Below are positions 7,528 through 48,151 of a DNA stretch of 57,452 nt, in pieces. The notes under the pieces are model-generated. The model worked only from the letters and a program-made list of their open reading frames with translations, did no database searches and was not told the origin of the DNA. A program made the position numbers and the translations under genes. Location: IMG/VR virus record IMGVR_UViG_3300048623_000040, positions 1 through 57,452 of that record. One strand, written 5' to 3'. Source of the DNA: a virus. Taxonomy: Duplodnaviria; Caudoviricetes. How positions within the stretch are numbered: the first letter of the stretch is position 1; the number at the start of each line of letters is the position of its first letter.

Positions 7528-7529
7528 GG

Positions 7530-20834: not shown

Positions 20835-21113
20835 TCACAGCAACAAGCTGGCGCGCAGGGCGTAGACCCAGTCGCGCCAATCATCGAAATCCCCCTGATA
20901 GGGCGTGTCCGGCACATGCAGCGCCAGCCGGTCGGCGAACTCGCGCCAGTCGTCGTTGACGTTGACCAGATTCGGCAGGCCGAGTCGTCCGTTCATGCCA
21001 ACCATGCTGTCGACCCAGTCCTGCCATTCCATGGCTCGGGGATCGGGCACCGTCCGGTGGATTTGGCGCGGGAAGGCCGGGCTGAGCCGGGGCGTGGCTT
21101 TGAGGACAGACAT
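20835..21113 (-). CDS. Trp-rich hypothetical protein
   Basis: Coupled to the upstream gene; PDPRAMEWQDW...WRDW. Confidence 0.65.
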   Translation of the reverse strand: MSVLKATPRLSPAFPRQIHRTVPDPRAMEWQDWVDSMVGMNGRLGLPNLVNVNDDWREFADRLALHVPDTPYQGDFDDWRDWVYALRASLLL

Positions 21114-22903
21114 CAGTCCTCCCGCCGCGCGTCACCGGGTTGCCAGTGAATGAGCGGCGCGCCCGTGACGTAGTTGCCGCCCAGCCAGTTGCTCTCGATG
21201 CGAAAGCTGTTGAGTCGTCCGGTGTGCTTGAACCTGATGAGCTGCTCGGCGGGCTTACAGGGCGCGGGTACGATGGTGTACGGCCCGCTGATCCGCTCAT
21301 GCGCGCGGGCGTTGGCCCGGCTGACGATGGTGAACTCCAGCGGGCCTGTCTGACTGAAGTCCGGCTCCATCACCGAGAGAGATTGTCCCTGATCGGCCCC
21401 CAGAGTGCCGGGTTGCTGGGGCATGACCATGCTGAACTCGCCGGTCTGGAAATAGGACCGGATGGCGCGCGGGATCGATACCGCGCCGCTCACCTCATCG
21501 TACTCGAACTCGTGCCGCCACATGCTGGTGCCGCCAGCCGTGTCTTCGTTGGGCACAATTCCGGCCATGATCGGGTGGTGGTAGACGAACTCGTAGTGGC
21601 CCGCCGAACGCCCGCCATTGGGCAGCACGGTGTCGTACCACTTTTTTTCCGCCCAGTTGTAGATGACGGCGTGCGTGCATTCGGTCGCGTTGCCGAAAGG
21701 GAAGCACCACCAGATTTCACTCCAGCGCGGAATCTTGAAGGCGAACACCTTCTGGCGTTCCTCCCAGTTCAGGTTGTCGAGAAACCACTGCCTGTTGTCG
21801 ATGTTGGGCATCTCCCGCACCACGCCGTTGAACAGCGTGAAGCCGCTGGTAGTCGCCCAGTAGTAGATGCCCTCGTGCTCGACGAACCCGTTCGACGACA
21901 GGACAGAAGAGTTTGTCGTGACGGTAGTAAAGTCCCAGTAGGCAGGCTGGCCGACGAACGAGCCGATGATCACGCTGCCGAGCGACCACATAATGATCGC
22001 CGGACCCGACTGGCCGCGCAGCGGCATGGCCCGAACGATCTTGTCGCCCACCGGACGTGCATCGCCGGTTCCCTCGCTCTCGAAGTCGGTCGGACTGGCC
22101 GTCGAACTCCACCTGACAATGCCGTCGTGGCCGTAGAGGAACAGGTACGGCGGCACGGCACAGCAGCCACCCGAGGCGCGCACCTGATGGGCCGTCATGG
22201 CAGTTGCCGCGACAGTCTGCGAGATGCTGACCTCGTAGGTGCCATTGCCACCCGTGCCGGTGTAGGGCGCAATCGGAGCCATCGCCACGATCACCGTGCC
22301 GGGAGCCGCGCCGTAGATCGTGTCGCCCTCGACCAAGGTCGTGTTCGTCGCGCCCGTTATCGTCAGAGTCGTTCCGCTGATCGCCCCGGTGAACAGCACG
22401 CCATCGGGGATTGGCGTCAGGGGCTCGACGCCGATGATGTCGCCGTAATAGACCGGGTGCTCCGACGACGTGGTGATCGATGTTGCGCTCGGCGTTCCCG
22501 AGGCAAAGATCATCGTTGTGTCAGTCGGGATATCGAACAACTGGCTGAACTGCCAGTTGAACTCGGGGTTGGTGGGGTACCCAGCCGGTGTGCGCGTCAA
22601 CAGGCCGGTATTCGCCCCTGACGTGATGTCGATGGCGTAGCGCTGGATGGCGTTGCCAGTGGCGAGATGGACGTAGCTGTAGCCGTCGTTGCTGAACACG
22701 TCGATGGCGCGAACGACTCCGTTGACGCCACGAAGCTGCTCGACGTAGCCGCCCATCTTGCGTGGCACACCCTGATACCAGCGGCACCACAGCGCATCGA
22801 TGTAGCTCTTCTGCGCCGCGCGCGTGCCGTCACGGCCAACTCCCGCCTGTGACAGCATGAGCTGCGGTCGCGAAGAGGAGACCTGTCGAGGTTCCTGCGC
22901 CAT
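21113..22903 (-). CDS. Tail nozzle / packaged-DNA stabilisation protein (P22 gp10 / tubular protein B-like)
   Basis: RWYQGVPRKMGG N-terminus, VRWS, EIWWCFP...CTHAVIYN; beta-propeller-like composition and position. Confidence 0.75.
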   Translation of the reverse strand: MAQEPRQVSSSRPQLMLSQAGVGRDGTRAAQKSYIDALWCRWYQGVPRKMGGYVEQLRGVNGVVRAIDVFSNDGYSYVHLATGNAIQRYAIDITSGANTGLLTRTPAGYPTNPEFNWQFSQLFDIPTDTTMIFASGTPSATSITTSSEHPVYYGDIIGVEPLTPIPDGVLFTGAISGTTLTITGATNTTLVEGDTIYGAAPGTVIVAMAPIAPYTGTGGNGTYEVSISQTVAATAMTAHQVRASGGCCAVPPYLFLYGHDGIVRWSSTASPTDFESEGTGDARPVGDKIVRAMPLRGQSGPAIIMWSLGSVIIGSFVGQPAYWDFTTVTTNSSVLSSNGFVEHEGIYYWATTSGFTLFNGVVREMPNIDNRQWFLDNLNWEERQKVFAFKIPRWSEIWWCFPFGNATECTHAVIYNWAEKKWYDTVLPNGGRSAGHYEFVYHHPIMAGIVPNEDTAGGTSMWRHEFEYDEVSGAVSIPRAIRSYFQTGEFSMVMPQQPGTLGADQGQSLSVMEPDFSQTGPLEFTIVSRANARAHERISGPYTIVPAPCKPAEQLIRFKHTGRLNSFRIESNWLGGNYVTGAPLIHWQPGDARRED

Positions 22904-22907
22904 CGTC

Positions 22908-25172
22908 TCAGGTCTTGATGATGTGGCGGACGATCAGGGTCGGCGGGGCGTTCTGGTGAAACCCGCTGCTGCCATTATTCTGCAGGCTGATGCCCGAACC
23001 GCCGCCCGAGTCGATGTTGTTCTGGATGCTGATGCCAGCGCCATCCAATGTCGTTCTGTCGGAGACGTAATCGAGCCACGACGACCCACCCGCATAATTG
23101 CCGTAGCCGGTGCCATCACCGGGGCGGGCCGGATTGACCCACGTAACGCCGTCCTGTGCGGTCAGGTGGTGGCGGTGGCCGTTATCGGTGATACCGTGAC
23201 TATGGCCCGTGTCGCTGACGGTGTGGGCGTGCGCGGGCATCTCGGTCGTCGTCAACTGCACGGAAGGCGTGCCGCCCTTGCCCCCCAAGGTCTTGGCCTG
23301 CGGGAAATATGTCGAGTTGAACAGGACATTGAGGTCGCCGTCCATGCCCGCCATCACACGCCCGCGCGTATCGGGCAGGGTGAAGGTGCCAGTGGCATGC
23401 GCCGGATTGGCCGGATCGGTGCCACCTGTTGCCGCGCCGTAGGTGATGCCGATGGCCTTCCACAGATTGGCGTACAGCGTCTTGTCGACCACCGTGCCGT
23501 CGCACAGCAACCACGTCCTGAAACCAGTCGTCGTATTGGCGATTGGCGGCAAGGTATTCCCGGCATACGGGATCATGGTGCTGGTCGGCACGAGGAAGGA
23601 GAACAGGGCGTCGAGATCGAGGATGTTCGCGCTGGTGATGGAGATGTCGACGTTCGCCGCCTCGCGCGCGCGACCCCGATCATCGAGCCGAATTACAGGA
23701 ACCTTGGTGACAGGTATGGGCACCGAGAAAGCCTGTATCGCAGTGCTGGCGGCTGTCTGCGATATGCTGACGGTGTAGGTGCCCACTCCGCCCGTACCGG
23801 TACCCAACGCACTGATGTACGTGTCAGCAGCAATGCCGGTGCCCGTGATCCGCTGGTTGATCGCCAGCGTGCCGCTGGTCACCGCTGTCACGGTGAGGAC
23901 TGTCAGGGCAATCGACCCGGTGACCGTGGCCAGAAGAACCGGCTGCGGTACGCCACCGTAGTAGCCCGGCGAAAGACCCGCGATGGTCGACAGATCAATG
24001 CTGCCCGCCGAGGTGATGCCACCCGGTGTCGGCGGGCTGGTCACGATCTGATCGGCTGTTCCCTCGATCTTCGTTACCGTGCCGCTGGTCGCACTGAAGG
24101 CGACATCGAGTGCGCCGCCGTTGCTGCGCAGGATCGAGAAGTTGCTGGGGTTGACGATGCTGATCGTCGAGTCAGTTGTCGCACCCTTGAACTGCAGCGG
24201 GATCGTCGTGCCGTTGTAGACGAACCAGTAGCCGTCACCCGGACCATAGATGATGGTGCGCGGCGCGGTCGGCGCTCCCGTGTAGTTCTGGACCTGCGCG
24301 GCAACCTGCGTCGCATTGAGCGTAAGGTCGCCGGTCCCTGACGCATCGATGTTGATAGCCGTCACGTTCGAGCTGACGAGTCGTCCATAGCCCATCGTGG
24401 CGAAGCCGCCACCATAGCAGTAGACGGCGCACGATTCGCCGGGGCTCAGGGTCTTGCTGGCAGCATTGTCGATCAGCTCGGGCGGGGTCGGCGTCAGAAT
24501 GACGTTGCCGCCGCCCGCATTGATCTCGATGACGAACCAGCCATTGCCTGTCGCCGAAATATTCGGCGGACCCAACGTCGCTGACAAAGGGAACGTGTGG
24601 ATGGACTCGCCGCCTGTATTGCGGAACACCTGCGCCCGGTCGGTGAAGGCGAAGGTGTAGTTGCCGCTGCTGTAGCTCGACTTCAGGAAATTCTGATCGA
24701 GTCGTCCAACATCGGTAGAACGCAGGCCATATCCGGCAAGACCGCTGGCGTTGGCGACCGACGTCGCCGCGCCCATCTGGACGGCTCGCCAGACACCTGC
24801 CGGGGTCGAGTTATCGACCAGATAGATGTACCACTGCGCGCCGGGCGCGCCGGGCGCGGTGCTCAGCGGTGGAATGGAAACGACAGGAGCGCCGTTGTAA
24901 TCGCGAACCGAGACCGACTGCGCACCAATGTTATTGAACAGGATGTCTTCGCCAACGCTGACCAAGGTCGCGTCGGGCAGGATCAACGACCGCCCACCGG
25001 CCGACGACTTGACGTCGATTTTGTCGGCAGCGACGTGACTGCCGTCCAGTGCCTCGAAAGGCCATTGCAGGCTGACCTCGGCGAGACCAAGCGCATCGAA
25101 GTCGTAGTACTTGTAGCTCAGATCGGCAGGATTGATGTTCTCGCCGCCGAAGACGTTGGTATAGGTGTTCAC
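22908..25172 (-). CDS. Tail fibre/baseplate-like protein with C-terminal tail-collar domain
   Basis: IPYAG...WLLCDG...Y.NLW.AIG.TYG...[10 protein letters not shown]; probable GTG start. Confidence 0.75.
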
Positions 25173-33381: not shown

Positions 33382-36102
33382 TCAGTCTCCTTCGCTTACG
33401 GCTGTGCCGGTGGTCATGTTTCCGCGACCCTTGATCTTGGCCATCTTGAGCGCGGTCTGGTTGCCCTTGTCCTCGATCTTGAGCTTGACCGCGTTGGCCT
33501 CGTCGGCAATCGACTCACGCGACTCGTTGGTGGCGTCGATGCCTGCCAAGCGCGCATCGTTGGCCTCCTGTGCCGTCTGGGCCTTGAGCGCGGCGTCGTT
33601 CGCCTTCTGCATCGAGGCCTCACGATCACCTTGCATCTTGGCCTCGACCTCGCGCTCGCGCAGCTCGCGGTCGCGATCCTTGCCGTGCAGGTCGGCCTGC
33701 ACCTTCATCGAGTCGTTCTCCATCTTGCGCCTGTCGGCCTCGACCTTGGTCATGGTCGAGACGAGCTGGAGGTGGGTCTTCTTTTCGTCCATTCCCAGCT
33801 TTGCCTTCTCGGCCTCGGCCTTCATCGTGTCGGCCTGCGTCTGGCGGTCGACGTCCTTCATGGCAACGATGCTCGGGTCCATCGGCATCGGCGGCGCGAG
33901 CTTGGCCATCAGGGCCTGCGCCTGTGCGATCACCTCGGGAAGCCTGACGAGTCGTTCGTTGGCGTACGCCATGACCTCGGGCGTGAGTTCCGCCAGCATG
34001 CGATCCAGCGGAGCCTCGTACTGCGTCCCCGACATGCTCTCGATGGTGAGCGTCGGGTCGCCTGTTTTCTGTCTGAGGACGGTGTTGGCCGCATCGAGCA
34101 TGGCGTCGGCGTACCACAAGCCGATATGCTCAGCGAGATGAGGCAGCATTACCGGCAGATACTTCTGCGCGATGATCGGGTTGGACCCGAACAGAGGCGA
34201 CATTATGTAGGCGCAGTGCGTTGCCAGATGGGCCTCGTGGTCCTGTCCGGGGAACGCCTTGATCGGCAACCCGCCACTGGAGGTGGCGTTCTCGGCCACG
34301 GCGTTTTGCTGCACCGGCTCGGGGTTGGGTACAAGGAACTGCTCGGGCTCCGGCACCTTCATCTGTTTCAGGAGGTATTTCTCGCTGGCCCGGATGTTGT
34401 AGACCTGCGGCAGGAGCTGAGCTCGCTGCGAGATGAGCTGCGCCATCGACTGACGCTGAATATCGCTAAATATGCGCGGGTCGCTGACCGGTATAACCTT
34501 CATCGGGCCAGCGAAGTCTTCACGTCGGACGATCAGTTCGCCGAACTGGTCCTGTATTTTGACGTTGTCGACGGTCTCGGCATTTATGTCCCAAAGCTGC
34601 TTGAGGAAGCGGGCCATGCTGCGATGGAGGCGTCCATGAACCGCGCCGAAATTCTTCAGACCCTGCTCGATGAACATGTTCGCGGTGCCGACGGGGGTCT
34701 GGCCTCCGAACTTGTCGAACTCATCGAAGGTCGTCCTGATGACCCCCTGCGCAGCATCCACTAGGAAGCCGAGCAGGTTGAACAGCACAGGCGACGGCGG
34801 CGGGAACGGCAGCGGCATGTAGGTCTTGCGCACATCGTCCATCGCCAGCGAACCCTGCATCTCGGTCGTCTGCATCGGGTTCGCCTTGATGTTCTGGCCG
34901 CCGCCTGTCGCACCACCTTTCAGCTTCACGCCGGTCTGCGAGTTGTTCAGGTGCGCGGCGTCGAGCAGGGCACGCAGCGATCCGGTGGCCGCGCCCGACA
35001 GCCCGCCAATCATGTGCGTCATGCCAATCGGGTAGCCGCCACGCCACGGGTAGAACGGCCATTCGATCACGAAGTCGAGCCGCTTCATGTCGACGTCGTT
35101 CTGCTTCCAGTTGCGATAGATCGACAGCACCTTCTGGCTCTGTTCGTCGACCGTGACGATGTAGGGCTCGGCCGGGGCATCGTCGTCGTCGAGACCCATC
35201 ATGACCGACGACTCGAACACAAGTCGGACACTGTCGATGTTCTCGCTCGGCTGGTCGCGACCGATGATGCGGTCGGTCGCCTGTTGCGATCTGGTTGGCT
35301 CGGGCACGTCGGGCGACGACTCGGTATCAACCACGTCGAGCCACAGCCCTGACCTGACGTTGTCCTCGAATTGCCACTTGTCGACTTCCATCTCGTGCGT
35401 AATGCGCGGCTGGGAGTAGATCGAACCGTCGCTCCACGGCCGATGTACCTTGTCGATGGGAATGGCGACCACGCTCATGCCCTGAGATTCGTAGATGGTT
35501 TTTGTGTAGAAGGCCCCGCCCAAGCTGCACTGCGTGAAGCCCATCTCGAACTCATAGGCGACGTTGGGCATCAGCTCGGTGAGCTGCAGGTTCATGTAGC
35601 GGGCGACGCGCTCGCCGATATCGTCCTTCTCGTGGGTTGGCGTACCGATGGTCTTGGCTTTCACCGGACCCTCGGGCGGCATCATCTCGTTCATGATGCG
35701 CGAGGCGAAGTCGATGGCACTGGCCGTCAGCATCGGGTGAACGACTCGCGATGCGCCGGGGAAGGTCGCACCACCGGGCGCGTCGTCACCAAGGCCAGTC
35801 CTCCGCAGGCCTTCCTCGTACTGCTTGTCGCGCTTGGCGCGCGCCTGCTTGTCGATCTTGATGGCATCGAGCAGATCAGTCGCGATCTTGCTGAGCCGTG
35901 TCTCGTCGATGGTCTCGGCGAGGTTGGAGAAGTGATCCTGCGGGTCCTGCGGCGGCGGACCTTCCGGCATCTGGACGTCGACGTTGCCGTCCTCGCCGAT
36001 GATCAGGTCGGAGCCCGGCGGAGTCGTCGTCTGCAGAGTCGACGCGCCGAGATCGCTGCCCGGCTGGCCGTAGGGGTCCTCGAAGACCGTGGGATCAGAC
36101 AT
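33382..36102 (-). CDS. Portal protein
   Basis: HFSNLAE...FPGASRVVHPML...ALLDAAHLNN...TPVGT...IPVSDP...AFPGQDHEAH; long C-terminal coiled-coil barrel as in P22-type portals. Confidence 0.9.
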   Translation of the reverse strand: MSDPTVFEDPYGQPGSDLGASTLQTTTPPGSDLIIGEDGNVDVQMPEGPPPQDPQDHFSNLAETIDETRLSKIATDLLDAIKIDKQARAKRDKQYEEGLRRTGLGDDAPGGATFPGASRVVHPMLTASAIDFASRIMNEMMPPEGPVKAKTIGTPTHEKDDIGERVARYMNLQLTELMPNVAYEFEMGFTQCSLGGAFYTKTIYESQGMSVVAIPIDKVHRPWSDGSIYSQPRITHEMEVDKWQFEDNVRSGLWLDVVDTESSPDVPEPTRSQQATDRIIGRDQPSENIDSVRLVFESSVMMGLDDDDAPAEPYIVTVDEQSQKVLSIYRNWKQNDVDMKRLDFVIEWPFYPWRGGYPIGMTHMIGGLSGAATGSLRALLDAAHLNNSQTGVKLKGGATGGGQNIKANPMQTTEMQGSLAMDDVRKTYMPLPFPPPSPVLFNLLGFLVDAAQGVIRTTFDEFDKFGGQTPVGTANMFIEQGLKNFGAVHGRLHRSMARFLKQLWDINAETVDNVKIQDQFGELIVRREDFAGPMKVIPVSDPRIFSDIQRQSMAQLISQRAQLLPQVYNIRASEKYLLKQMKVPEPEQFLVPNPEPVQQNAVAENATSSGGLPIKAFPGQDHEAHLATHCAYIMSPLFGSNPIIAQKYLPVMLPHLAEHIGLWYADAMLDAANTVLRQKTGDPTLTIESMSGTQYEAPLDRMLAELTPEVMAYANERLVRLPEVIAQAQALMAKLAPPMPMDPSIVAMKDVDRQTQADTMKAEAEKAKLGMDEKKTHLQLVSTMTKVEADRRKMENDSMKVQADLHGKDRDRELREREVEAKMQGDREASMQKANDAALKAQTAQEANDARLAGIDATNESRESIADEANAVKLKIEDKGNQTALKMAKIKGRGNMTTGTAVSEGD

Positions 36103-39100
36103 CAGAAGGACCCTTGGATGTTGATGCTGCCGCGCATCGGTTGATCACCACCGCTCAACGCGCCTCGGCCACCACCCATCGCAGTGGACTGCTGCAGGCC
36201 GCTGGCCGCCGCCATGTTGGCCAGCACGCCCTGACCGGGACCGGACGGCGTGCTCGCCATTGGAGCCGCAGGCATGCTGGCAGCCTGTGGCATGGCACCA
36301 AGACCCTGCTGGCCCGTCGGTGGGATGCCGTACTGCTGTCCGTTGCCAAAGTCGTCGGGCGTCGCTTGACCGAAGCCCGGCGTGTTGGGGTCCATCGGCG
36401 GGTGGGTCTTCAGCCATTCGGCGTACATTGCCTGCGTCTGGGACGGATCACCGAGCAATCCGCTCATCATTCCACCGTCGGCGAAGCCCGGCACGTAGCC
36501 ACCCTCGGCGAACAGACCCGTGCCCTTACCGATGGCCATCGCCGGGCTGAGCAATGAGGCTATGTCCATGCCGCCGCTCTTGCCACCACCACCGCCGACA
36601 CCAAGACCCTTGAGCAGCATCGGCAGCAACCCGCCCACGCCACCATCGCCACCGGCCAGCGTATTGATGATGCCACCAAACCCGCCGCCACCGGTCTCGG
36701 CAGGCGCGGGTGCAGGCGCGGCAGCACTGGTGCCCATGCCGGAGCTGTCGGTGCCATTGGCGCTGGAGAGAGCCGCAGCGAAACGCGGATCGCTGTTGAG
36801 CAGATTGAAAAGATCGCCGCCCAGCCCGCCGCCACCGGTCTCGCGGTCCCACTTGTTTGGATCGAACAGGTTGCCGCCGCCCATCGAGAAGCCGGGGACG
36901 TAGCCACCATCGGCGTAGTTCATCACGCCGTAGGCCATCATCTCGTCGTCGATGGTCGGCGCGCCGAGTCGTTGGTGACGGTCCTCCGGCTCGACGTAGC
37001 CACCGTGGGCGAACCCCATGCCGGAGCCAGCGGCAGTAGCACCACCTGCACCGCCGAACGCGCCTGCGATCTTGCCCAGACCGCCCAGCATGCTGCCTAT
37101 GCCAGCGGCGCTCACACCGCCGCTCTCGCCGCCACTGGGCGCACTGCGGTTCATCGACTGGAGCAGCTCGACCGGCTTGGGCCGTGGCTGCATCGCGCCC
37201 TCGGACGGTGTGTTGCCGTAGATGTCGACGGCGTTGGGGATCATTCGCCTGACCCATTCGAGCAGCGCATTGTTGTTCAGCAGGTCACTGGTCGATCCGG
37301 TGGACTGGCTGCCACTCTGTACGCCACCGCCTCCGGCGTAATCGTATCCAAGGTTATCCATGCCTACTTTGGCCGCCGTCGGCGCACCGCCTGTGATGGC
37401 CAGCTTTGCGAGTGCGCCGGGTATCCTCTTCTCCATCGACTTGATGGCTGTCCTGATTCCGCTGCCCAGCAACCTGCTCGGGGTGAGCGCCGTGCCCATC
37501 GTAATGGCCGCCAGATCGGCGGGCGCGGCGACAGGACCGTACTCGGCCGTCAGGTTGGGGTTGGGGTTCAGCATGTTGACGGTGTCTTCGAGGGCCTCTC
37601 CACCAGACATGCCCGCCGTCGCCCGATTAAAGGCGTCGATGCCGTACATCAACGGGTTGCCCTTGGCGTTGTGTGAGAAGCGATCCCACTCGTTACCGAC
37701 GCCCTCCGACGCCATGTCACCCAGAATGCCGGCCACCATGCGCGACTTGTCGGCCTGCACATCGAGCCGCTCGTTGCTCTGGCGCAGCCGCATCTCGCGC
37801 AGGATTTTCCGCTGCTCGGGCGTCATCGTCATCCGGCCGCCGTCATCGAAATTATTCACCTGTCCGCCCTCCTGATAGGCACCCGCCTTGCCGGTCAGCA
37901 CGAGATCGCGCGCGGTCTCGGGCGAGACGCCGAGTCGTCGCGCTGTCTTCATGATCTGGTCGGCCAGCATCTCCAGCTTGGGGGTGCCGACGTAATCGAC
38001 GCCAGTCTGCGGCCCAAGCACGTTCCACATCAGCGCTTGGAAATCGCGCGGCTGCTCGCCCGCCTTGCCGCTGGCCTTCGCCCACCACGGTGCGAAGTCG
38101 GCGAACTCCGGGTTGGTCAGCTCGGCGTAACGACTCGCCGGTCCTCCCGTGCGTACATCCGAATAGCCCGCACCTCGCGCGATGTGCGAATCGGCAATCG
38201 GCCTGCGCGGATCGGCGAGCACCGGATCAGTCGCCTGAATGTAAGTCGGTATCTTGTGCGTGTCGGTCGCCAGCTTGCCTTCGCGCTCAAGGTTTTCCAG
38301 CATCAGACCATGCAATGGATGAAAGGCGTGGCTCTTCATGTCGAGCATGTCTTCTGGGAAGCCCGGCGTATTGAAACGACTCGTTCGTATCTCGCCGCTG
38401 CGGAGCGGCGTGTCGGTCATGCCGCGTCCACCGAACATCAGGTAATCGTCGAGCCTCCCCTCGGTGATCAGCTTGTTGGCCAAGGTGCCGCGATTGATCT
38501 CACTGATCGGATTGGCCCCGGCGGAATGCAAACCAAGACGCGCATTGAAGAGCTGCATCTGATCGAGCGGCACGCCCAGCTCTTTCATGCGGTCCCACAG
38601 CGGCTGCATCTCATACCATGAGCGGGTGCGCAGAAGGTCGGGGTTCTTCAGCACCTCATTGTAGATGTCGAGATAGCGCTGCATGTTGCGGTTCGTCAGG
38701 ACCTGCTCGGAAACCTTCGAGCCCTTACCGCCGGGCGGCGCATCGAAGGCGTGCGGCACGCCCTCCAGATGGCTGTAGTCGCGGCCCTGCGAGATGTCGT
38801 CTAGATCACCGCGATTGACGTGAAACAGCCGCTGCATGTTCTCGCCCTCGGGGATGAACACGCGGTTTACGTCGGAGACGATGTCGTCGGGGTCCTTGTA
38901 CGCGCCGGGAAACTCGGTGCGATACGGGTCCTTGACCGTCTGCAGGCGCGGCTTGGGCGGCAGGACTATGCGCGGGCTCTTGGCTTCGCGCGCCGCGTTG
39001 AGTCGTTTCTCCAGCTCTAGCATCTTGTTCGCAGCGTCGGTCTTCCAGCCCGCCTGCGTCAGCGCGCCTGCGTCTTCCGAGTCGTCGGTCGGGTAGTCGA

Positions 39101-42029
39101 TCTCGCCAAAGCCACCGATGCGATAGTTGCGGAGCGCACCGCCTGCGCGATAGCCGGGGACCGCACCGCCCTCGGCGAGCCACGGGAACTTGAACTGTGG
39201 CAGCGTGTCCTCGGTGAGGTTGCGCGAATACAGCGGATCGTACCATTCGGTCTCGGGCAGCACCTTGCCAGCCTGCGAGTTCATCACGCGGCGAAACTCG
39301 TTGAGCCCGCCCTCGGGATTGAGCGGCGAGTTGTGATAGCCCAAGCGATTGGCAGCGAGATCGCTCGGCTTCACCGAGACCAGCGCCTTATCGTGGGCCA
39401 TCTTCTCGGCCATCGTCATCATGCGGTGGCGGCCGTTGTGCTCGACCACGGTCGGGTACTTGTTGACGGTCGGCATACCGCCAAGGTCGAGGAAGCCATG
39501 CTCAGCGGTGTTGCCGAAGCCCAGCAGCGGCACCTCGTCCCACAGGCCCTGTCTACCGGCCTCGGCATATTTCTCCAGCACATCGTCGAGCGAGCCGTGC
39601 TCGCGGTCGATGAAGCTGAAGTGCGCGGCGGTCTTGTAGTTGGGGTCCTGCAACGCCCTTTGAGGGATACGCGCCGAGAACTTCTGGAAGTCCTTGGGAT
39701 CGATGATGGTCAGCAGGTTGCCGACATCGGGAGCCTGTTGCTTGCGGATGTCCCAGCCCAGCGCGCGCTGCAGCGCCTCGGCATTGAACAGCGAGAGGTC
39801 CACTCCGAGGTCAGCCGCGTCGGTGAGTCGTAGCGCGCCCTTCTGGCCGTGCGTGCGCCTGACCGTATCCAGCTTGTCCGCCATCGACTGCGCGGCCTGC
39901 GACTGGATGTTGGGCGATGCCAGATGGTTGTTGACCATCCACGCCAGCGCAGGATCGGGAGACGACTGATTTTGCAGGAACGACGCCAGATCGGACGTCG
40001 CGTTGGTCGATGGTCCCCACGTCTGCGGCGTCGGGCTGGCAATGAACCGGTTGGCAGCGATGAACGGGTTGGCGTTGGGGTCGGGTGTCGGGTTCACAAA
40101 CTTGTTGAACGCATTGAAGTTCGACGACAGCGACGGCGTCGCCGCCTTGGCCGCCGCTTCAGCTTCCATCCTCTTCTGGACCGAGGCCAATGCCGACATG
40201 CCGCGCTTGACCAACTGATTCTCGCGTCCACCAAAGTGCTGCACGGTGCCTCCCTCGGCCATCTCACCCTTCTTGGCGGCGATCTTGGCCAGCTCGCTCC
40301 ACACGTCGGCCAGTGGCGCATTGGTGCCTGTCAGCATGGTCGAGGCGTCGAGCTGCACCGGCACGTCGCGCGCGGCGATGTTGTTGAGCAGGGCTCCGGC
40401 ATCCATTTCGCGAAGCTGCCTGCCGAGCATGGGGTGCGGCTCCTTGTCGGTGCGCGGATCGCCCAGCCCGTGCGCCTTCATGAAATCGAGGTAGTTGGAG
40501 AACACCGGATCGTCGGCACGCGCTTGTCGCCAGCGATCTTCCATGTTCGCCTTGGACTGCATCACGGCGCTGCGTAGGGTGTGGGGCATGTCGCCGCCAC
40601 TGTCGACCGAGCCGATGCGCAGCAAGCCGCCACTGGGTTCGCGCGCGATCAGCATGTTGCCGAAGGGTCGACCATACTGGTCATCGATCATCGCCAGCGG
40701 ATCGCCGAAGTTCTGTCCCCACACCCGGTAGTCGTCCATCGACGGCGAGATCGAGTCGTTGGGATGACTGTGCAGGCCGAACCACGGCTGCTCTTTGTTG
40801 GAAGAGACAAAGCGATCCGTCCAAGACGGCATCGGCACATTGGTCTTGGTGCCCTTGACCAGCTCGCTGTTATCGAACGAGTCCGCGCCAATGTGGCCGA
40901 ACATCATGCCTTCGTTGCCGGTCGCCTGCGTATGCGCGCGCACCCTGCGCTCGGCCTGCTCGACGGCGTCGCCCAGACTCGTGGCCAGATTTCTCACCGC
41001 CTCGACCCGGCCTCGGGTCTTGTAGCCGGGCACTTCGCCACCCTCGGCGAACGGCAGGGTGAGGCGCAGCGCGCCGCCCAAGTTGGGCTTGGCCTCGTTG
41101 CCGCCGGGGCCGATGTACTTGTCGTAGTTGAACTGGCCGCCCACGGTCGCGCCACGACTGCCCAGCGGATGCTTGTAGCCCAGCAGGGCCTCGATCACCT
41201 GCTGGGTCGGATCGTACTTGAGCCCCGCCGAACCCCGCCCCCGGCCAAGCCCGAACTCGGCGGTCGGCATCTCGCCATCGCTGCTGCCGCTCGGCGCGGT
41301 GAACGAGCTGTTGGGGATCGAGTAGCGGTCCTCGACGTCGTTGTAACCGCCTCCACCGAAGGCAGGCTGATTGAACTCTCGGGCTGCGCGCTCGCCTCCG
41401 GCGAAGCCGGTAGGCTCGGGCACGAACTCGGTGCCGGTGCCTTGCGGGAAGTAGGTGCGGATGAGTCGTTCGACGACCTCGTCGGGCTCGCCAACGAGGT
41501 CTCCGCCGCGCGCAGGCCGGATGTTCACCAACGCCCTGCCCTCGTTCATGCGGGCCAGCATGCGCATCCGGTGACGTGCCTCGTGGCCATCGACCGAAGC
41601 CTTGTCGCCAGCGATGTTGGGGTTGCCTTCCCTGAGCCAGAGCTGGCCGGGCTCACGCAGTCCGTACTTGCCGGTCATCTTGGTGAGGCCGGCGAGGTAG
41701 TCGTCGAGAGAGTGGTCGGGCCGGGGATTGTTGGGATCGCCGCCGTGCCAGCGATTATACGGGATCGCGTCAGGCTGCATGATCGGCCGCGCGAACGACT
41801 CGAACTCGCTCGGATGCATCGCCATCAGCAGACCGCTGTTCTGCATCTTCGAGCCGCTATAGAGCTTGCTCGACCCCATCACATCGCTGAGCGACTTGGG
41901 GTCCCACAGGTCTAGGTTGACGCCCTCGTCACCTGCGCGCTGCAGCCGTCGTGCCTGTGCTTGGCCGTACTTGCGCTCGACCTCCCGCAGGACGTCGAAC
42001 ACCGGACTGGCGCGCGTAAGTCTGCCCAT
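36102..42029 (-). CDS. 1975-aa multi-module (polyvalent) protein: two ParB-like modules, a JAB/MPN domain, a helical HhH-like domain and a Gly-rich tail
   Basis: GHEARHR and HNGRHR modules; E...HSHP....PS..D JAB motif; modules separated by [FYML]AxGG; lies between terL and portal. Confidence 0.75.
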   Translation of the reverse strand: MGRLTRASPVFDVLREVERKYGQAQARRLQRAGDEGVNLDLWDPKSLSDVMGSSKLYSGSKMQNSGLLMAMHPSEFESFARPIMQPDAIPYNRWHGGDPNNPRPDHSLDDYLAGLTKMTGKYGLREPGQLWLREGNPNIAGDKASVDGHEARHRMRMLARMNEGRALVNIRPARGGDLVGEPDEVVERLIRTYFPQGTGTEFVPEPTGFAGGERAAREFNQPAFGGGGYNDVEDRYSIPNSSFTAPSGSSDGEMPTAEFGLGRGRGSAGLKYDPTQQVIEALLGYKHPLGSRGATVGGQFNYDKYIGPGGNEAKPNLGGALRLTLPFAEGGEVPGYKTRGRVEAVRNLATSLGDAVEQAERRVRAHTQATGNEGMMFGHIGADSFDNSELVKGTKTNVPMPSWTDRFVSSNKEQPWFGLHSHPNDSISPSMDDYRVWGQNFGDPLAMIDDQYGRPFGNMLIAREPSGGLLRIGSVDSGGDMPHTLRSAVMQSKANMEDRWRQARADDPVFSNYLDFMKAHGLGDPRTDKEPHPMLGRQLREMDAGALLNNIAARDVPVQLDASTMLTGTNAPLADVWSELAKIAAKKGEMAEGGTVQHFGGRENQLVKRGMSALASVQKRMEAEAAAKAATPSLSSNFNAFNKFVNPTPDPNANPFIAANRFIASPTPQTWGPSTNATSDLASFLQNQSSPDPALAWMVNNHLASPNIQSQAAQSMADKLDTVRRTHGQKGALRLTDAADLGVDLSLFNAEALQRALGWDIRKQQAPDVGNLLTIIDPKDFQKFSARIPQRALQDPNYKTAAHFSFIDREHGSLDDVLEKYAEAGRQGLWDEVPLLGFGNTAEHGFLDLGGMPTVNKYPTVVEHNGRHRMMTMAEKMAHDKALVSVKPSDLAANRLGYHNSPLNPEGGLNEFRRVMNSQAGKVLPETEWYDPLYSRNLTEDTLPQFKFPWLAEGGAVPGYRAGGALRNYRIGGFGEIDYPTDDSEDAGALTQAGWKTDAANKMLELEKRLNAAREAKSPRIVLPPKPRLQTVKDPYRTEFPGAYKDPDDIVSDVNRVFIPEGENMQRLFHVNRGDLDDISQGRDYSHLEGVPHAFDAPPGGKGSKVSEQVLTNRNMQRYLDIYNEVLKNPDLLRTRSWYEMQPLWDRMKELGVPLDQMQLFNARLGLHSAGANPISEINRGTLANKLITEGRLDDYLMFGGRGMTDTPLRSGEIRTSRFNTPGFPEDMLDMKSHAFHPLHGLMLENLEREGKLATDTHKIPTYIQATDPVLADPRRPIADSHIARGAGYSDVRTGGPASRYAELTNPEFADFAPWWAKASGKAGEQPRDFQALMWNVLGPQTGVDYVGTPKLEMLADQIMKTARRLGVSPETARDLVLTGKAGAYQEGGQVNNFDDGGRMTMTPEQRKILREMRLRQSNERLDVQADKSRMVAGILGDMASEGVGNEWDRFSHNAKGNPLMYGIDAFNRATAGMSGGEALEDTVNMLNPNPNLTAEYGPVAAPADLAAITMGTALTPSRLLGSGIRTAIKSMEKRIPGALAKLAITGGAPTAAKVGMDNLGYDYAGGGGVQSGSQSTGSTSDLLNNNALLEWVRRMIPNAVDIYGNTPSEGAMQPRPKPVELLQSMNRSAPSGGESGGVSAAGIGSMLGGLGKIAGAFGGAGGATAAGSGMGFAHGGYVEPEDRHQRLGAPTIDDEMMAYGVMNYADGGYVPGFSMGGGNLFDPNKWDRETGGGGLGGDLFNLLNSDPRFAAALSSANGTDSSGMGTSAAAPAPAPAETGGGGFGGIINTLAGGDGGVGGLLPMLLKGLGVGGGGGKSGGMDIASLLSPAMAIGKGTGLFAEGGYVPGFADGGMMSGLLGDPSQTQAMYAEWLKTHPPMDPNTPGFGQATPDDFGNGQQYGIPPTGQQGLGAMPQAASMPAAPMASTPSGPGQGVLANMAAASGLQQSTAMGGGRGALSGGDQPMRGSINIQGSF

Positions 42030-44837: not shown

Positions 44838-44891
44838 GGGGCGTGGTGCGCCCCGATCTAAGACCTGAGTCCTGTCGATTGTCAACGACTC
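44838..44891 (-). promoter_or_regulatory. Promoter of the ParB-like gene: TTGACA, ATCGACAGGA box, two GANTC sites and a leader hairpin
   Basis: Minus strand reads GAGTCG-TTGACA-ATCGACAGGA-CTC...TTAGAT-C-GGGGCG-CACCA-CGCCCC. Confidence 0.6.
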
Positions 44892-46407
44892 ATTCGTAGG
44901 GGTTCCTGATCTCGCCGTCCTCGCGCCGCAGGTCGTTGTACATGGCCTCATCAGCGCCGAGGTCGACGTCCCACTGCAGCTCGTCGTCCTTGATCTTGGT
45001 GGTCACGCCCGCCGTCAGCCAGCGGTCGGCGAAGTATCTTACAGCCTGACTGAAACTATCCACGAAGTCGTCGTTGCGAGTCGTTCCGGGGCCAGCATAC
45101 TGCGTGACCTCCTTCAAGAACGGCTCGCACCATGTGCGTGGTTCACCACGCACCGCCTTGCTCTCGGGCAACCAGATGCGGCCTGCAGCGGGGACATGCG
45201 AGATGGCGTGCAGACGACTCAGCTTGTCGGCGTTGCCCGGATTGTATGGCCAGCTATCGACGCCCTCGTACTGCAGCGTCTGTCTGAGGCTGATGCCCGA
45301 GCCCTTCTCCTCGATGATCATGAGGTCGGGCACCTTGGTCTGCTCGTGGTACTGCGGATCGCCGACGATGGGCTTGAACACGAGATCGCGCCTGCGCCCG
45401 TACCTCGCCTTCATCTCCTGCTTGGCGCGCACGATCAGCTCGGGGAAGCCGATCTGCTCGTGCCAGCATTCGAGCAGCATCATGTTCCAGCGTCGGCCCT
45501 CGGGGAACACGCCCCACACCGTGCAGGCCGTGTAGTCGGGCTCGTAGCTCTTCTTGTCGAAGGTCTTCTCGGTTAACGCCGTGTCGAGCGAGACGAACAC
45601 GAAGTCGAACCAAGGCAGCGGCCGGTCGTGGCCCCACAGGGGTAACCAACTACGCTTGATGATCGCCGCCTCGCCCACCTCCAGCAATTCGCCGAGCACT
45701 TCCTGCCGGTAGATTTGCGTGCCCTCGTACTGCTGAAGCTCGTCGAAGAACGCCTCGGCAAGGTTGGACCTGTTCTCCATGGTGGTGCCGCGAACGACTC
45801 GTGTCGACTTGCGTTCGATCATCGCCTTGAGCCACTCCAGCGGACGTGGCGTCGTGGTGTAGAGTCGTTGCGGCTGGACCTTGGTGCCGTCGCTCTTGGT
45901 GTAGAACAGGCGTGTGCTGAGATCGATGTTGGAGACCACGCTCTCGGCGTTGGTGCCCCACGCCGCCGCCTCGTCACCCCAGCAGAAGTGAGCCTGTGGG
46001 CCGCGCAAGCGATCCGGCGTCTCGGCGCTGAAGCCCTTGATGATGCTGCCGTTGACGAGTCGTATCTCGAAGATCGAGTTGTTGATGCCCTCGATCATCT
46101 CGTGCGGGATGGTGTTGACCAGTCCGCTAGGGCCGCCAAACACCACCCCTCGCAGATCGCCGTAGGTGGGTGCGATAACGTGAATGACGCAGCCGGGATA
46201 TAGGCCGGCTTGCCGTCTGAGCCAGTTAGAACCCACGAGGGTCTTACCGAAGCCTCATAATCGTCCCGCCTGCACAACACATAGCGACCACCCACCAACC
46301 GGGATGATCTGCTTGTATCGTGCGCGGCGGGACCACCGGTTCTCTGCGTCGATGAATGCGATCTCATGATCGCTTGCTGACCTGAGTTCCTCGGCGTTGA
46401 TGCTCAT
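44890..46407 (-). CDS. terL: Terminase large subunit with an in-frame Leu-TGA insert in Walker A (46255-46260)
   Basis: ATG at 46407 overlaps the HNH stop; AGR-L*-GFGKT; RLRGPQ...WGDEAAAW Walker B; TTTP; SLDTA...DYTACTVWG nuclease; NDDFVDS. Confidence 0.9.
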
Positions 46408-46823
46408 ACCAACGACTCGCGACGGCGCTGCTGAGTTCGCTCAATCGCACAGCGCCTACACATCCGTCGCTTACCGGGGTAGCTATACGTGTTCTCGGGC
46501 GTGAACTCGTGACCGTGAACGCAATGTGTTTGGGCGGCTTTCATCGCTGCTTGTGTATGCCCTCGCATAAGATTGACGCGGCACGTCACAGCCTCAAGGT
46601 GCTCGGCGTCGATGCAGGCTCGATTACGACATAGATGATCGAGCTGCAAGCCAGCAGGCACCAAGCCGCGCGCCAACTCATAGGCGCAGATGTGGGCCTG
46701 CCGGTCACTGCCACGGTCCTTGATCCTGCCGTAGCCATCCTTGTCCTTGCGACCAAGCCATATCCGACAGCCATTGATGCGGATGCTGCCATCGTAGAGT
46801 CGTCGCGCGAGCGTGCTCATCAT
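46404..46823 (-). CDS. HNH endonuclease with C-terminal Zn finger
   Basis: CRIWLG...GYG...AH..AYE...LDHLCRNRACIDAEHLEAVT..VN; THCVHGH...CRRC. Confidence 0.9.
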   Translation of the reverse strand: MMSTLARRLYDGSIRINGCRIWLGRKDKDGYGRIKDRGSDRQAHICAYELARGLVPAGLQLDHLCRNRACIDAEHLEAVTCRVNLMRGHTQAAMKAAQTHCVHGHEFTPENTYSYPGKRRMCRRCAIERTQQRRRESLV

Positions 46824-46888
46824 GCCACAGCATCATGAAGCGCGCCGGAGCCCCGTACAAGGGCTCCAGCCTGTCCTCAGGTTGCGCC

Positions 46889-47074
46889 TCACGCGGCGGC
46901 CTTCTCGTGTTGCTGGCCATCTTCCAGCCTCTTCAGCATGTGCGTGTGGTGCTGAACGATCTTGCTGTACTCATGAATGCAGCGGCGATGGTACTCCATC
47001 GCGCACTGCCTGCATCGCCCTCCGATAATCGCCTTGCCGTGACTGCAGTTCCCCAAGAACGCCTGCTTCATCAA
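46889..47074 (-). CDS. Small Cys/His-rich hypothetical protein
   Basis: CSHG...CRQC; fits the operon. Confidence 0.5.
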   Translation of the reverse strand: MMKQAFLGNCSHGKAIIGGRCRQCAMEYHRRCIHEYSKIVQHHTHMLKRLEDGQQHEKAAA

Positions 47075-47108
47075 GCCCTCACTTGCATCAACGCAGCCTC
47101 GGCCAAGC

Positions 47109-47303
47109 CTAGCACGGCTTCTCCTGTCCTCTCATCGCGACACGCGCAGCAGCATCAATGTCGTCTGCCAACGTCCTGATATATTCCAGCCCCACCCGCA
47201 GTCGCTCGATCTCGTCGGCGGCTTCATCACCCAAGGGGCTGTAGGTGGCCTCGCCATACTCATACACCGAGGCCTTGCGCAGGCGTTGCACGATGTCGGT
47301 CAT
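47109..47303 (-). CDS. Small phage hypothetical protein (DIVQRLR...EAADEIERLR)
   Basis: ATG at 47303 overlaps the MTase stop; motif common in phage small proteins. Confidence 0.7.
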   Translation of the reverse strand: MTDIVQRLRKASVYEYGEATYSPLGDEAADEIERLRVGLEYIRTLADDIDAAARVAMRGQEKPC

Positions 47304-48151
47304 GACTTGGCCCTCACGATGGTCGTCGACTCGACGACGCGCGGTCCGAACACGAACCACGCGAAGTCAACACTGCCATTATGGCCGCGATCAGGGACAT
47401 CGGGCGGCAGCATCTTGAGTCGTCCGACGATGATCACCTTGGTCAGATGCTTCAGCAGGTCGGCGCGCTTCTGCGCGGCCACCCATGTCATGCGCAACAG
47501 CACACACACCAGCCTGTCGTTTTCAACGATGCGCAGCGCGTGACGCACATGATCGTCGGCCTTCGAGTAGGGCGGGTTCATCACGATGTTGCTCGGCGTC
47601 TCCATGCACGACAGGAAGTCGTAGCCGAACGACACGTCGACACCGAGGCGCAGGCCGGGCGTCGGCCATCGATACTTGTCGGAGCCTGACGCCGCGCGTC
47701 CCGCCTCGATCATCGTGCGCACGATGTTGCCGCGTCCACAGCTCGGGTCCCACACGCCGCCGTCCAGCTTCACGTTGCTCAGCAACTGATGCACGGCGTC
47801 AGGCGGCGTCTCGTAGTTGTCGTGCGGATCGCGCTCGTCCTCCATCAGGCCGTACTGGCCTGCGGCGCGGCGCACGCGCTTGAGCCGGGCAAGCCGCTTG
47901 GCCTTCTTGACCGCGAAGTCTGGGCTGTTCAGCAATGCGCGGGCGTGCTTGGCCGAGAGCGGCTCGTTGTCGGCGGCCAGCCTGCGCTTAGCCGTGGCCG
48001 TTGGTTCTGCCGTTGGGCGAGTGGATGAGGCGCGGGCCTTCGCGCGGGTCGGTGAGGTCGCGCTCTTCCGGGTCTTCGTTGGTCTCGATGAGCGTCGAGC
48101 CGCGTTCTTGGTTGTCTTGCGCTTCACGTCGTGCTGCCCCCGCCAGTTCAT
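47300..48151 (-). CDS. Orphan DNA amino-methyltransferase (N6-adenine type); true start probably downstream of 48151
   Basis: YETPP, WDPSCGRG (motif I), IVMNPPY (motif IV), FAWFVF. Confidence 0.85.
   Translation of the reverse strand: MNWRGQHDVKRKTTKNAARRSSRPTKTRKSATSPTRAKARASSTRPTAEPTATAKRRLAADNEPLSAKHARALLNSPDFAVKKAKRLARLKRVRRAAGQYGLMEDERDPHDNYETPPDAVHQLLSNVKLDGGVWDPSCGRGNIVRTMIEAGRAASGSDKYRWPTPGLRLGVDVSFGYDFLSCMETPSNIVMNPPYSKADDHVRHALRIVENDRLVCVLLRMTWVAAQKRADLLKHLTKVIIVGRLKMLPPDVPDRGHNGSVDFAWFVFGPRVVESTTIVRAKS

Follow-up and report, generated by a model that had tools for sequence, protein, structure and literature searches.

The locus considered here raises the question of why a domain resembling a zinc peptidase should sit within a single giant phage gene, between repeated Gly-Gly motifs. 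The gene lies in IMG/VR virus record IMGVR_UViG_3300048623_000040, an uncultivated, linear viral record of 57,452 bases with an estimated completeness of 83% (hereafter, the window). Its minus-strand open reading frame (ORF) at 36102..42029 is real: it starts with ATG, runs without interruption for 1975 codons, and encodes the protein that we refer to as P0001. The original prediction, made from the letters of the DNA, had described P0001 as a cassette polyprotein with an embedded protease of the JAB/MPN type (JAMM) that either releases effectors by cutting at the Gly-Gly sites, possibly also trimming other motif-bearing virion proteins, or is injected as a deconjugase against immunity based on ubiquitin-like proteins (Ubls).

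The explanation that we favor, with somewhat better than even confidence, is that P0001 is a phage polyvalent protein whose unrelated modules are linked through a conserved junction peptide, JAB being one of its exchangeable effectors. By analogy with that class, P0001 is presumed to travel inside the phage head and to leave it along with the DNA. The peptide that stitches the modules together marks points of cassette exchange, and JAB would be a swappable effector, comparable to the ART-PolyVal-like cassettes of relatives, rather than an enzyme on which the motif depends. We read JAB in this way because it is optional within the family, and the comparison that points to this is given first.

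Modular organization of P0001 and comparison with a JAB-less relative

P0001 consists, in order, of a first B domain (B1), the JAB cassette, a spacer, a second B domain (B2), a hub that resembles HhH-GPD enzymes, a module C, and a Gly-rich tail (Table 1), so that two or more biochemically unrelated domains (JAB, the hub, the two B domains, and module C) share one polypeptide. Borders were drawn by BLAST against five near-length homologues, two of which have weak ART-PolyVal matches, and six viral loci. They carry the Gly-Gly motifs, and they are set independently by the ends of BLAST segments and by the poorly predicted ends of both AlphaFold models (JAB and hub), where the motif-containing residues have a predicted local distance difference test (pLDDT) score below 50. 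Scans of the whole protein returned no family in Pfam or PHROGs, no PDB sequence, and, by tblastn, no GenBank phage. Five relatives (P0002, P0004, P0005, P0006, and P0013) have a common C-terminal ending, ...G-G-A-L-R-Y-C-x-G-G-(R-Y / Y-A-R), that is missing from P0001, which ends in ...I-N-I-Q-G-S-F.

That the JAB cassette is optional is illustrated by a relative of 2094 amino acids (L003/L004; L004 below), which carries six or more motif sites but contains no H-x-H at any position. A JAB profile that recovers the window with an E-value of 1.1e-89 as positive control finds no match on the whole L004 contig (69,077 bases, 99% complete), and no Pfam peptidase is found in the L004 protein. In pairwise alignment, residues 2-228 of P0001 correspond to 25-252 of L004 and residues 591-965 to 249-583, and P0001 229-590 (spacer, motif, and JAB) is therefore a clean insertion flanked by FGGGG and MAEGG, both of which align to one and the same FAEGG in L004. 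At the next junction it is L004 that carries some 300 extra residues, with a weak, sub-threshold ART-PolyVal match, and P0001 that does without them. Together with the BLAST segment ends, this alignment bears out the modular, cassette-like architecture that had been proposed.

Since L004 keeps its motifs and no JAB was found in its contig, the motif does not depend on JAB. Among 101 shorter hub-domain proteins, many of them fragments, none matched the JAB profile, while 29 have at least one strict motif (as defined below) and 6 have at least two. As far as sequence comparison can tell, the JAB module is an optional cassette in this family.

The junction peptide

P0001 contains 6 matches to the strict pattern [FYLMW]-x-[ED]-G-G-x-[VI]. 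Shuffling its residues gave 0.054 matches on average and never more than 2, so that 0 of 20,000 shuffles reached 6. A looser pattern, which is weaker evidence, occurs 9 times against a shuffle mean of 1.98, with 6 of 20,000 shuffles reaching 9. All of the Gly-Gly positions listed in the original prediction are present, and the strict pattern is in clear excess over shuffles. When the window is translated in six frames, all 6 strict matches fall inside the P0001 ORF and none in other ORFs or frames; likewise, the homologous ORF accounts for all 19 strict matches in six related viral loci, and none occurs in 17 kb from an unrelated phage. The suggestion that JAB trims other motif-bearing virion proteins is consequently without basis for the strict motif, because no other protein in the window or the related loci carries it.

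Across 128 collected proteins we counted 106 unique strict instances, with the consensus [YF]-A-[ED]-G-G-x-V-x-[GDH]-[FY]-x-G-G-G, frequently arranged as a tandem pair of nine-residue units; Y or F is found in 83% of these instances, A in 70%, and E or D in 99%. Proteins of varied domain content carry the motif, whether between modules or at the N- or C-terminus, and in several relatives it lies 14-25 residues past the start Met. Four smaller JAB-bearing relatives (P0022, P0023, P0025, and P0026) have a conserved leader, ...F-R-R-F-Y-A-[EK]-G-G-[YF]-V, within their first 30 residues, so the motif is also an N-terminal element. The codons of the motif copies vary at synonymous positions within the P0001 gene, which means that the junction is conserved as a peptide and not as DNA, and a DNA-level recombination signal was rejected on this ground as the sole explanation of the motif. 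An RTX-like nonapeptide was also rejected, as the register of Gly and acidic residues does not match. A literal-string search of the literature for the junction peptide found no phage-related paper. The junction peptide that joins the modules follows the consensus [YF]-A-[ED]-G-G-x-V-x-x-[FY]-x-x-G-G and, judged from the aligned sequences, sits exactly where relatives gain, lose, or swap cassettes.

What the peptide does at these points is a separate matter. One tentative but credible possibility is that it is never cleaved and serves as a structural joint or docking peptide, either a hinge for threading through portal and tail or a handle for a head component, and that it doubles as an in-frame recombination seam. 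The cassette indel falling exactly at motif copies would fit such a joint, as would the predicted flexibility of the motif, its appearance at both termini and between modules of differing content, and the fact that no one protease domain co-occurs universally with it. On the other hand, the conservation of aromatic-Ala-acid-Gly-Gly-x-Val exceeds the demands on a flexible linker, the motif is not known to bind any partner, and the unconserved codons make recombination at the DNA level insufficient by itself.

The JAB/MPN+ cassette

The cassette that we read as an exchangeable effector is, on the strength of its structural model, a true MPN+/JAMM module spanning residues 333-589. The JAMM string given in the original prediction (E...HxH-x7-S-x2-D) is present as written, in the form G-N-E373 ... 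H420-S-H422-PNDSISP-S430-MD-D433, and E373, H420, H422, S430, and D433 are invariant in all 15 aligned homologues (alignment A1). An exhaustive HMMER search recovered 21 homologues of the module, nearly all within large proteins, and a regular expression for H-x-H...[STA]-x-x-[DE] matches 19 of these 21. The AlphaFold2 model (pLDDT 79.8, predicted TM-score 0.82) retrieves JAB/MPN proteins at ranks 1-48 among the Foldseek rows shown (BRCC36, CSN5, Rpn11, AMSH, RadC; best E-value 2.4e-4). A second look with VIA gives Citrobacter BubCD at Z 8.0 (root-mean-square deviation (rmsd) 3.9, 143 residues aligned), PfJAMM1 at Z 6.9, and Cap3 at Z 6.1, and in an independent all-PDB VIA search ranks 1-23 are all MPN chains (best Z 6.8, rmsd 3.5, 117 aligned). 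These Z values are modest, and the case lies in the consistency of the matches and the intact catalytic set. The predicted JAB/MPN fold with its complete, conserved catalytic residues is thus upheld by model, Foldseek, VIA, and the 15-sequence alignment.

Searches by sequence remain below threshold: the isolated JAB piece reaches Pfam Prok-JAB at 12.7 bits against a cut-off of 25 (E-value 0.12) and NCBIfam Cap3 at 14.1 bits against a cut-off of 200 (E-value 0.042), the best PADLOC JAB model matches weakly at 0.012, and the profile finds AfJAMM in PDB at 0.089. Because the catalytic set is complete, the JAB cassette is probably an active zinc peptidase or isopeptidase. In one relative, P0009 (2437 amino acids), three B domains are followed by four tandem JAB-like units, each ending in a motif of the Y-Q-S-G-G-P-V-K-M-K type, and the protein stops two residues past a final F-A-K-G-G.

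If the module is active, its substrate could lie in the infected cell. An ejected deconjugase that strips ubiquitin-like conjugates of host defenses (CBASS Cap2, Bil, Bub) would be compatible with JAB as an exchangeable effector, and we regard it as conceivable, if rather doubtful. The fold matches are peptidases of Ubl pathways, including bacterial ones (BubCD, Cap3, and a bacterial Ubl-deubiquitinase complex at Z 5.5), the best sequence matches, weak as they are, are the PADLOC JAB models and Cap3, and delivery at infection would suit counter-defense. The prokaryotic Ubl-pathway JAMM/MPN+ enzymes (BubCD, P. furiosus JAMM1, CBASS Cap3, BilC) have the same MPN fold and E...HxHx7Sx2D zinc site as P0001, and differ in several respects. 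Family scans recognized no Ubl, E1, or E2 partner in P0001 or the neighbors tested, the P0001 module is extended by some 100 residues of helical structure and is embedded in a 1975-residue virion-type protein, and the sequence similarity is confined to the metal-site motif. It also counts against a deconjugase that sequence scores fall far short of the family cut-offs (as for Cap3), that we know of no host or defense system for the window phage, and that our literature search found no phage-delivered JAB deconjugase.

Work on polyvalent phage proteins argues that their JAB (RadC) domains act on nucleic acids (Iyer, Burroughs, Anand, de Souza, and Aravind, 2017; PMC5512222), and the JAB of P0001 could be such a RadC-like enzyme, as proposed there for the class. 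RadC has the MPN fold and an H-x-H-P...P-S-x-x-D style motif as in P0001, and the Chlorobium RadC structure 2qlc turns up in the fold search at Z 5.1 (108 residues aligned). The Ubl-pathway peptidases rank above it, Pfam gives no RadC match, and the JAB of P0001 has no directly fused HhH or other nucleic-acid module.

The hub and B domains

The hub (residues ~1020-1384) is the most conserved part of the family. More than 100 phage proteins contain it, often with lengths of 410-700 amino acids and with the hub as principal domain, and sometimes it is fused to ART-PolyVal, GNAT, or DUF6321; in the homologue P0056, ART-PolyVal scores 45.5 bits against a cut-off of 31.2. An alignment of 38 sequences yielded an AlphaFold model with a pLDDT of 86.3. 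In an all-PDB VIA search with this model, ranks 1-22 all belong to the HhH-GPD superfamily, led by Tm1821 8-oxoguanine glycosylase at Z 11.3 (rmsd 3.3, 184 of 209 residues aligned), followed by the queuine-salvage enzyme DUF2419 (Z 8.9 and 8.6) and then by OGG1, endonuclease III, AGOG, MutY, and AlkA, with unrelated rows at 4.5 or lower, though for helical proteins a Z below ~13 can reflect a common arrangement. Structural neighbors in BFVD are uncharacterized phage proteins, several of multi-domain polyvalent types (fusions with ART-PolyVal, 'large polyvalent protein associated domain', SleB, helicase, or GNAT).

K1259, D1280, and H1282 are invariant in the 38 sequences. In the model, K1259 stands at the start of a helix, a Pro-rich loop comes next, and D1280-S-H1282 lies at the start of the following helix; this arrangement may correspond to the active-site layout of HhH-GPD enzymes, in which the catalytic Asp follows a Gly/Pro-rich loop. 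The similarity to HhH-GPD glycosylases and DUF2419 is one of fold, in contrast to sequence, where the hub matches no Pfam or PDB family: neither the hub piece nor 10 homologues match Pfam, the profile finds nothing relevant in PDB, GenBank phages give no match, and Foldseek against PDB returns no significant match for the model. A sub-threshold ESM Atlas lead to DUF7178 (score 0.89) was dropped, as Pfam gave no confirmation on the hub piece or the 10 homologues. The modeled fold, which agrees with a two-lobed helical architecture containing an HhH, suggests that the hub is probably a glycosylase-like, predicted DNA-facing domain.

The B domain is present in 19 copies in 15 proteins, which share H-E-x-R-H-R with invariant His, Arg, and His. 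The Glu of H-E-x-x-H is kept in 17 of the 19 copies and lost in two second copies. Formally the string fits the zincin signature H-E-x-x-H, and the layout strand-G-H-E-G-R-H-R-helix-G-strand is equally like ParB/Srx. There is no Pfam match, no PDB profile match, and no shorter homologue, ESM Atlas gives nothing for B1, and hhalign of the B profile (A3, five sequences only) against P1 DdrB gives a probability of 0.12%, which leaves room for a distant relation.

The B domain matters here in that, if it were a zincin, it might be the enzyme that cuts at the motif; the same part could be played by a prohead maturation protease that cuts after an acidic residue, or by a host protease. We consider the motif unlikely to be a site for another protease of this kind. 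The 106 unique instances do have a hydrophobic residue at -2, Ala at -1, and E or D at 0, then Gly-Gly, a pattern that resembles the site rules of T4 gp21 (L/I-x-E, capsid-targeting leaders) and phiKZ gp175, and the placement soon after the start Met in several relatives is leader-like. The B domain, with its largely retained H-E-x-x-H, is also found in the JAB-less L004, and Iyer et al. (2017) propose zincin peptidases as processors of polyvalent proteins. Weighing against such a protease, the Pfam prohead-protease models S77 and S78 have no match in the window (in a record 83% complete, and with divergent proteases able to escape), and no protease is recognized by PHROGs or Pfam among the head genes tested. 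The B domain itself matches no peptidase family or structure, its layout also resembling ParB/Srx, and the motif-rich proteins P0005 and P0013 lie outside the 15 proteins with a B-profile match.

Proposed self-processing and the case for an exchangeable effector

Several points weigh against JAB as an exchangeable effector of a polyvalent protein. Presence in the virion is argued from analogy with the class, every sequence-family score of JAB lies below its curated threshold, the strong JAB-less case is one complete genome, and many of the other JAB-less proteins with motifs come from short contigs and are possibly fragments. In the closest family JAB is frequent: the profile search is positive for all of P0001-P0005, with long insertions between H-x-H and S-x-x-D in P0002-P0004. 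The motif flanks JAB upstream in 17 of 24 instances and downstream in 17 of 24, and a functional link between motif and JAB is therefore conceivable, but not obligatory. Lastly BubCD, the best structural match of JAB, is reported to cleave a linear Ubl-E2 fusion directly behind a conserved Gly (PMC11601596), which makes the cutting of a polyprotein by JAB chemically plausible.

These points bring back the original proposal, in which the embedded JAMM cuts after Gly-Gly at each motif, in cis or in trans, and frees the modules in the capsid or after ejection. In addition to the flanking motifs and the BubCD precedent, the complete and conserved catalytic set and the position of motifs in predicted flexible ends are consistent with it, and some JAB-bearing relatives end a few residues past a motif, like Ubl precursors, where truncation of the contig is possible. 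We nevertheless find self-processing quite improbable. The prediction had looked to motif-rich relatives always encoding a JAB, and this check failed on L004; the hub-domain proteins, 29 with a motif and none with a JAB match, tell the same way. Both modeled modules have a helix directly before the motif, not the beta-grasp fold of a Ubl, and the JAMM peptidases known to us recognize the body of the Ubl. A predicted complex of the JAB module with a 41-residue junction (935-975) scored 0.01, which weighs neither for nor against binding.

A bolder version would make [YF]-A-[ED]-G-G-x-V the dedicated processing signal of a large undescribed polyvalent group, in which the JAMM, where present, cuts after Gly-Gly without need of a Ubl fold (as BubCD does on BubAB) and frees effectors on delivery, while JAB-less relatives rely on another protease; this we see as a long shot.

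Relation to known phage proteins

A polyvalent protein with JAB as exchangeable effector is not a new kind of system, and the label of an undescribed system was overstated, in that polyvalent phage proteins, including some with JAB domains of the RadC clade, are already described (PMC5512222). Like P0001, these are long polypeptides of unrelated modules in a late-gene place by terminase and portal genes, with relatives that carry ART-PolyVal, and the same source proposes embedded peptidases as their processors. P0001 also shares its hub with recognized polyvalent proteins, as in P0056, where ART-PolyVal is above its cut-off; in the close family it is sub-threshold. P0001 differs in that no Pfam polyvalent model reaches its cut-off, in its HhH-GPD-like hub ('glycosylase' is absent from the main text of PMC5512222), and in its conserved junction motif ('linker' and 'glycine' being absent from the available text). 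As far as our searches go, the junction motif, the HhH-GPD-like nature of the hub, and the H-E-x-R-H-R domain have not been found in print and are new.

The internal proteins of T4 offer another comparison, as they are stored inside the head and leave it together with the DNA, and their capsid-targeting leaders are cut by the prohead protease, with leaders or junctions ending in hydrophobic-x-Glu; the Dar/DdrB head proteins of P1 are likewise packed and ejected. The window differs from both, with no T4-type or HK97-type protease found (S77, S78) and no DdrB similarity in the B domain.

Genomic neighborhood

The P0001 gene adjoins the terminase and portal genes, as had been noted originally, and its stop shares one base with the start of the portal gene. 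By tblastn the portal protein matches 18 phage records, including Caulobacter, Roseobacter, and Pelagibacter phages; the 12 rows listed show identities of 27-42%, and several of the matching records label the counterpart as portal or head-to-tail connecting protein. Upstream there are the gene for the large terminase subunit (TerL), a phrog_5931 protein, and two small ORFs; downstream, beyond the portal, come the major head protein, tail fibers, and ejection-type proteins. Related contigs keep the order of terminase, small genes, giant ORF, and a gene of about 900 amino acids. In Caulobacter phage GB2A the portal directly follows the terminase, which identifies the giant gene as an accessory gene inserted in the lineage of the window.

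The PHROG match of the terminase ORF spans the C-terminal part of the terminase profile alone (positions 523-706 of 760), and a DNA methyltransferase gene (47300-48151, phrog_799, E-value 1.5e-40) lies just upstream of it (minus-strand region 44890-48151 of the window; 2445-5248 in L009). In GB2A the large terminase is annotated in two pieces with a methyltransferase gene between them, and the window terminase may have a similar split. Elsewhere on the minus strand, two neighboring tail-fiber-like genes (21113-25172; 596 and 754 amino acids) have a common module of ~70 residues and both match phrog_21413 and phrog_38233, and two more very large ORFs (3094-10361; 1481 and 943 amino acids, the latter without a PHROG match) close off the structural region at its distal end.

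Table 1. Features of the P0001 locus, with positions in the window; residue numbers refer to P0001 (aa, amino acids).
Feature	Position	Strand	Description
P0001 gene, putative polyvalent protein	36102..42029	-	1975 aa; from ORF and relatives
Module B1	41052..42029	-	Residues 1-326, conserved part 2-247; bears H149-E-A-R-H153-R
Degenerate junction motif FGGGG	within B1		Residues 224-228
Low-complexity spacer in B1 region			Residues 229-326; part of JAB insertion
Junction motif FAEGG	41037..41051	-	Residues 327-331, then EVPGY
JAB/MPN+ (JAMM) metallopeptidase-like cassette	40263..41033	-	Residues 333-589; MPN core and C-terminal helical extension
Junction motif MAEGG	40248..40262	-	Residues 590-594, then TVQHFGG; 3' border of JAB insertion relative to L004
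Low-complexity spacer	39924..40247	-	Residues 595-702
Module B2	39180..39923	-	Residues 703-950; diverged duplicate of B1, H-N-G-R-H-R (Glu lost)
Junction motif LAEGGAVPGYRAGG	39138..39179	-	Residues 951-964 (LAEGG..YRAGG); weak ART-PolyVal-like cassette inserted here in L004
Hub (core) domain	37878..38972	-	Residues ~1020-1384; all-alpha, predicted HhH-GPD DNA-glycosylase-like fold
Double junction motif YQEGGQVNNFDDGG	37836..37877	-	Residues 1385-1398 (YQEGG..FDDGG at 1385/1394)
Module C	37014..37835	-	Residues 1399-1672; common to some relatives; from BLAST segments
Gly-rich C-terminal tail	36105..37013	-	Residues 1673-1975; FAHGG 1673, YADGG 1705, FAEGG..FADGG 1840/1849
Portal protein gene	33382..36102	-	906 aa; immediately downstream of P0001 gene; from tblastn
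Large terminase subunit gene (TerL)	44890..46236	-	Upstream of P0001 gene; phrog_38, E-value 3.4e-19

Significance

In an infected cell, polyvalent proteins are believed to act before any other phage protein, and to our knowledge almost none has been studied at the bench. If the ordinary explanation given here is true, P0001 is one more polyvalent protein, with new parts. Its junction peptide, which many uncultivated phages have at their cassette borders, may act as a signal for processing or docking and offers a practical marker for delimiting effector modules. The JAMM module, which travels with an intact active site as a swappable cassette, is a candidate for polyprotein processing or for counter-defense against ubiquitin-like immunity, and the widespread hub, whose predicted fold is DNA-glycosylase-like, may bind the DNA as it enters or act on it.

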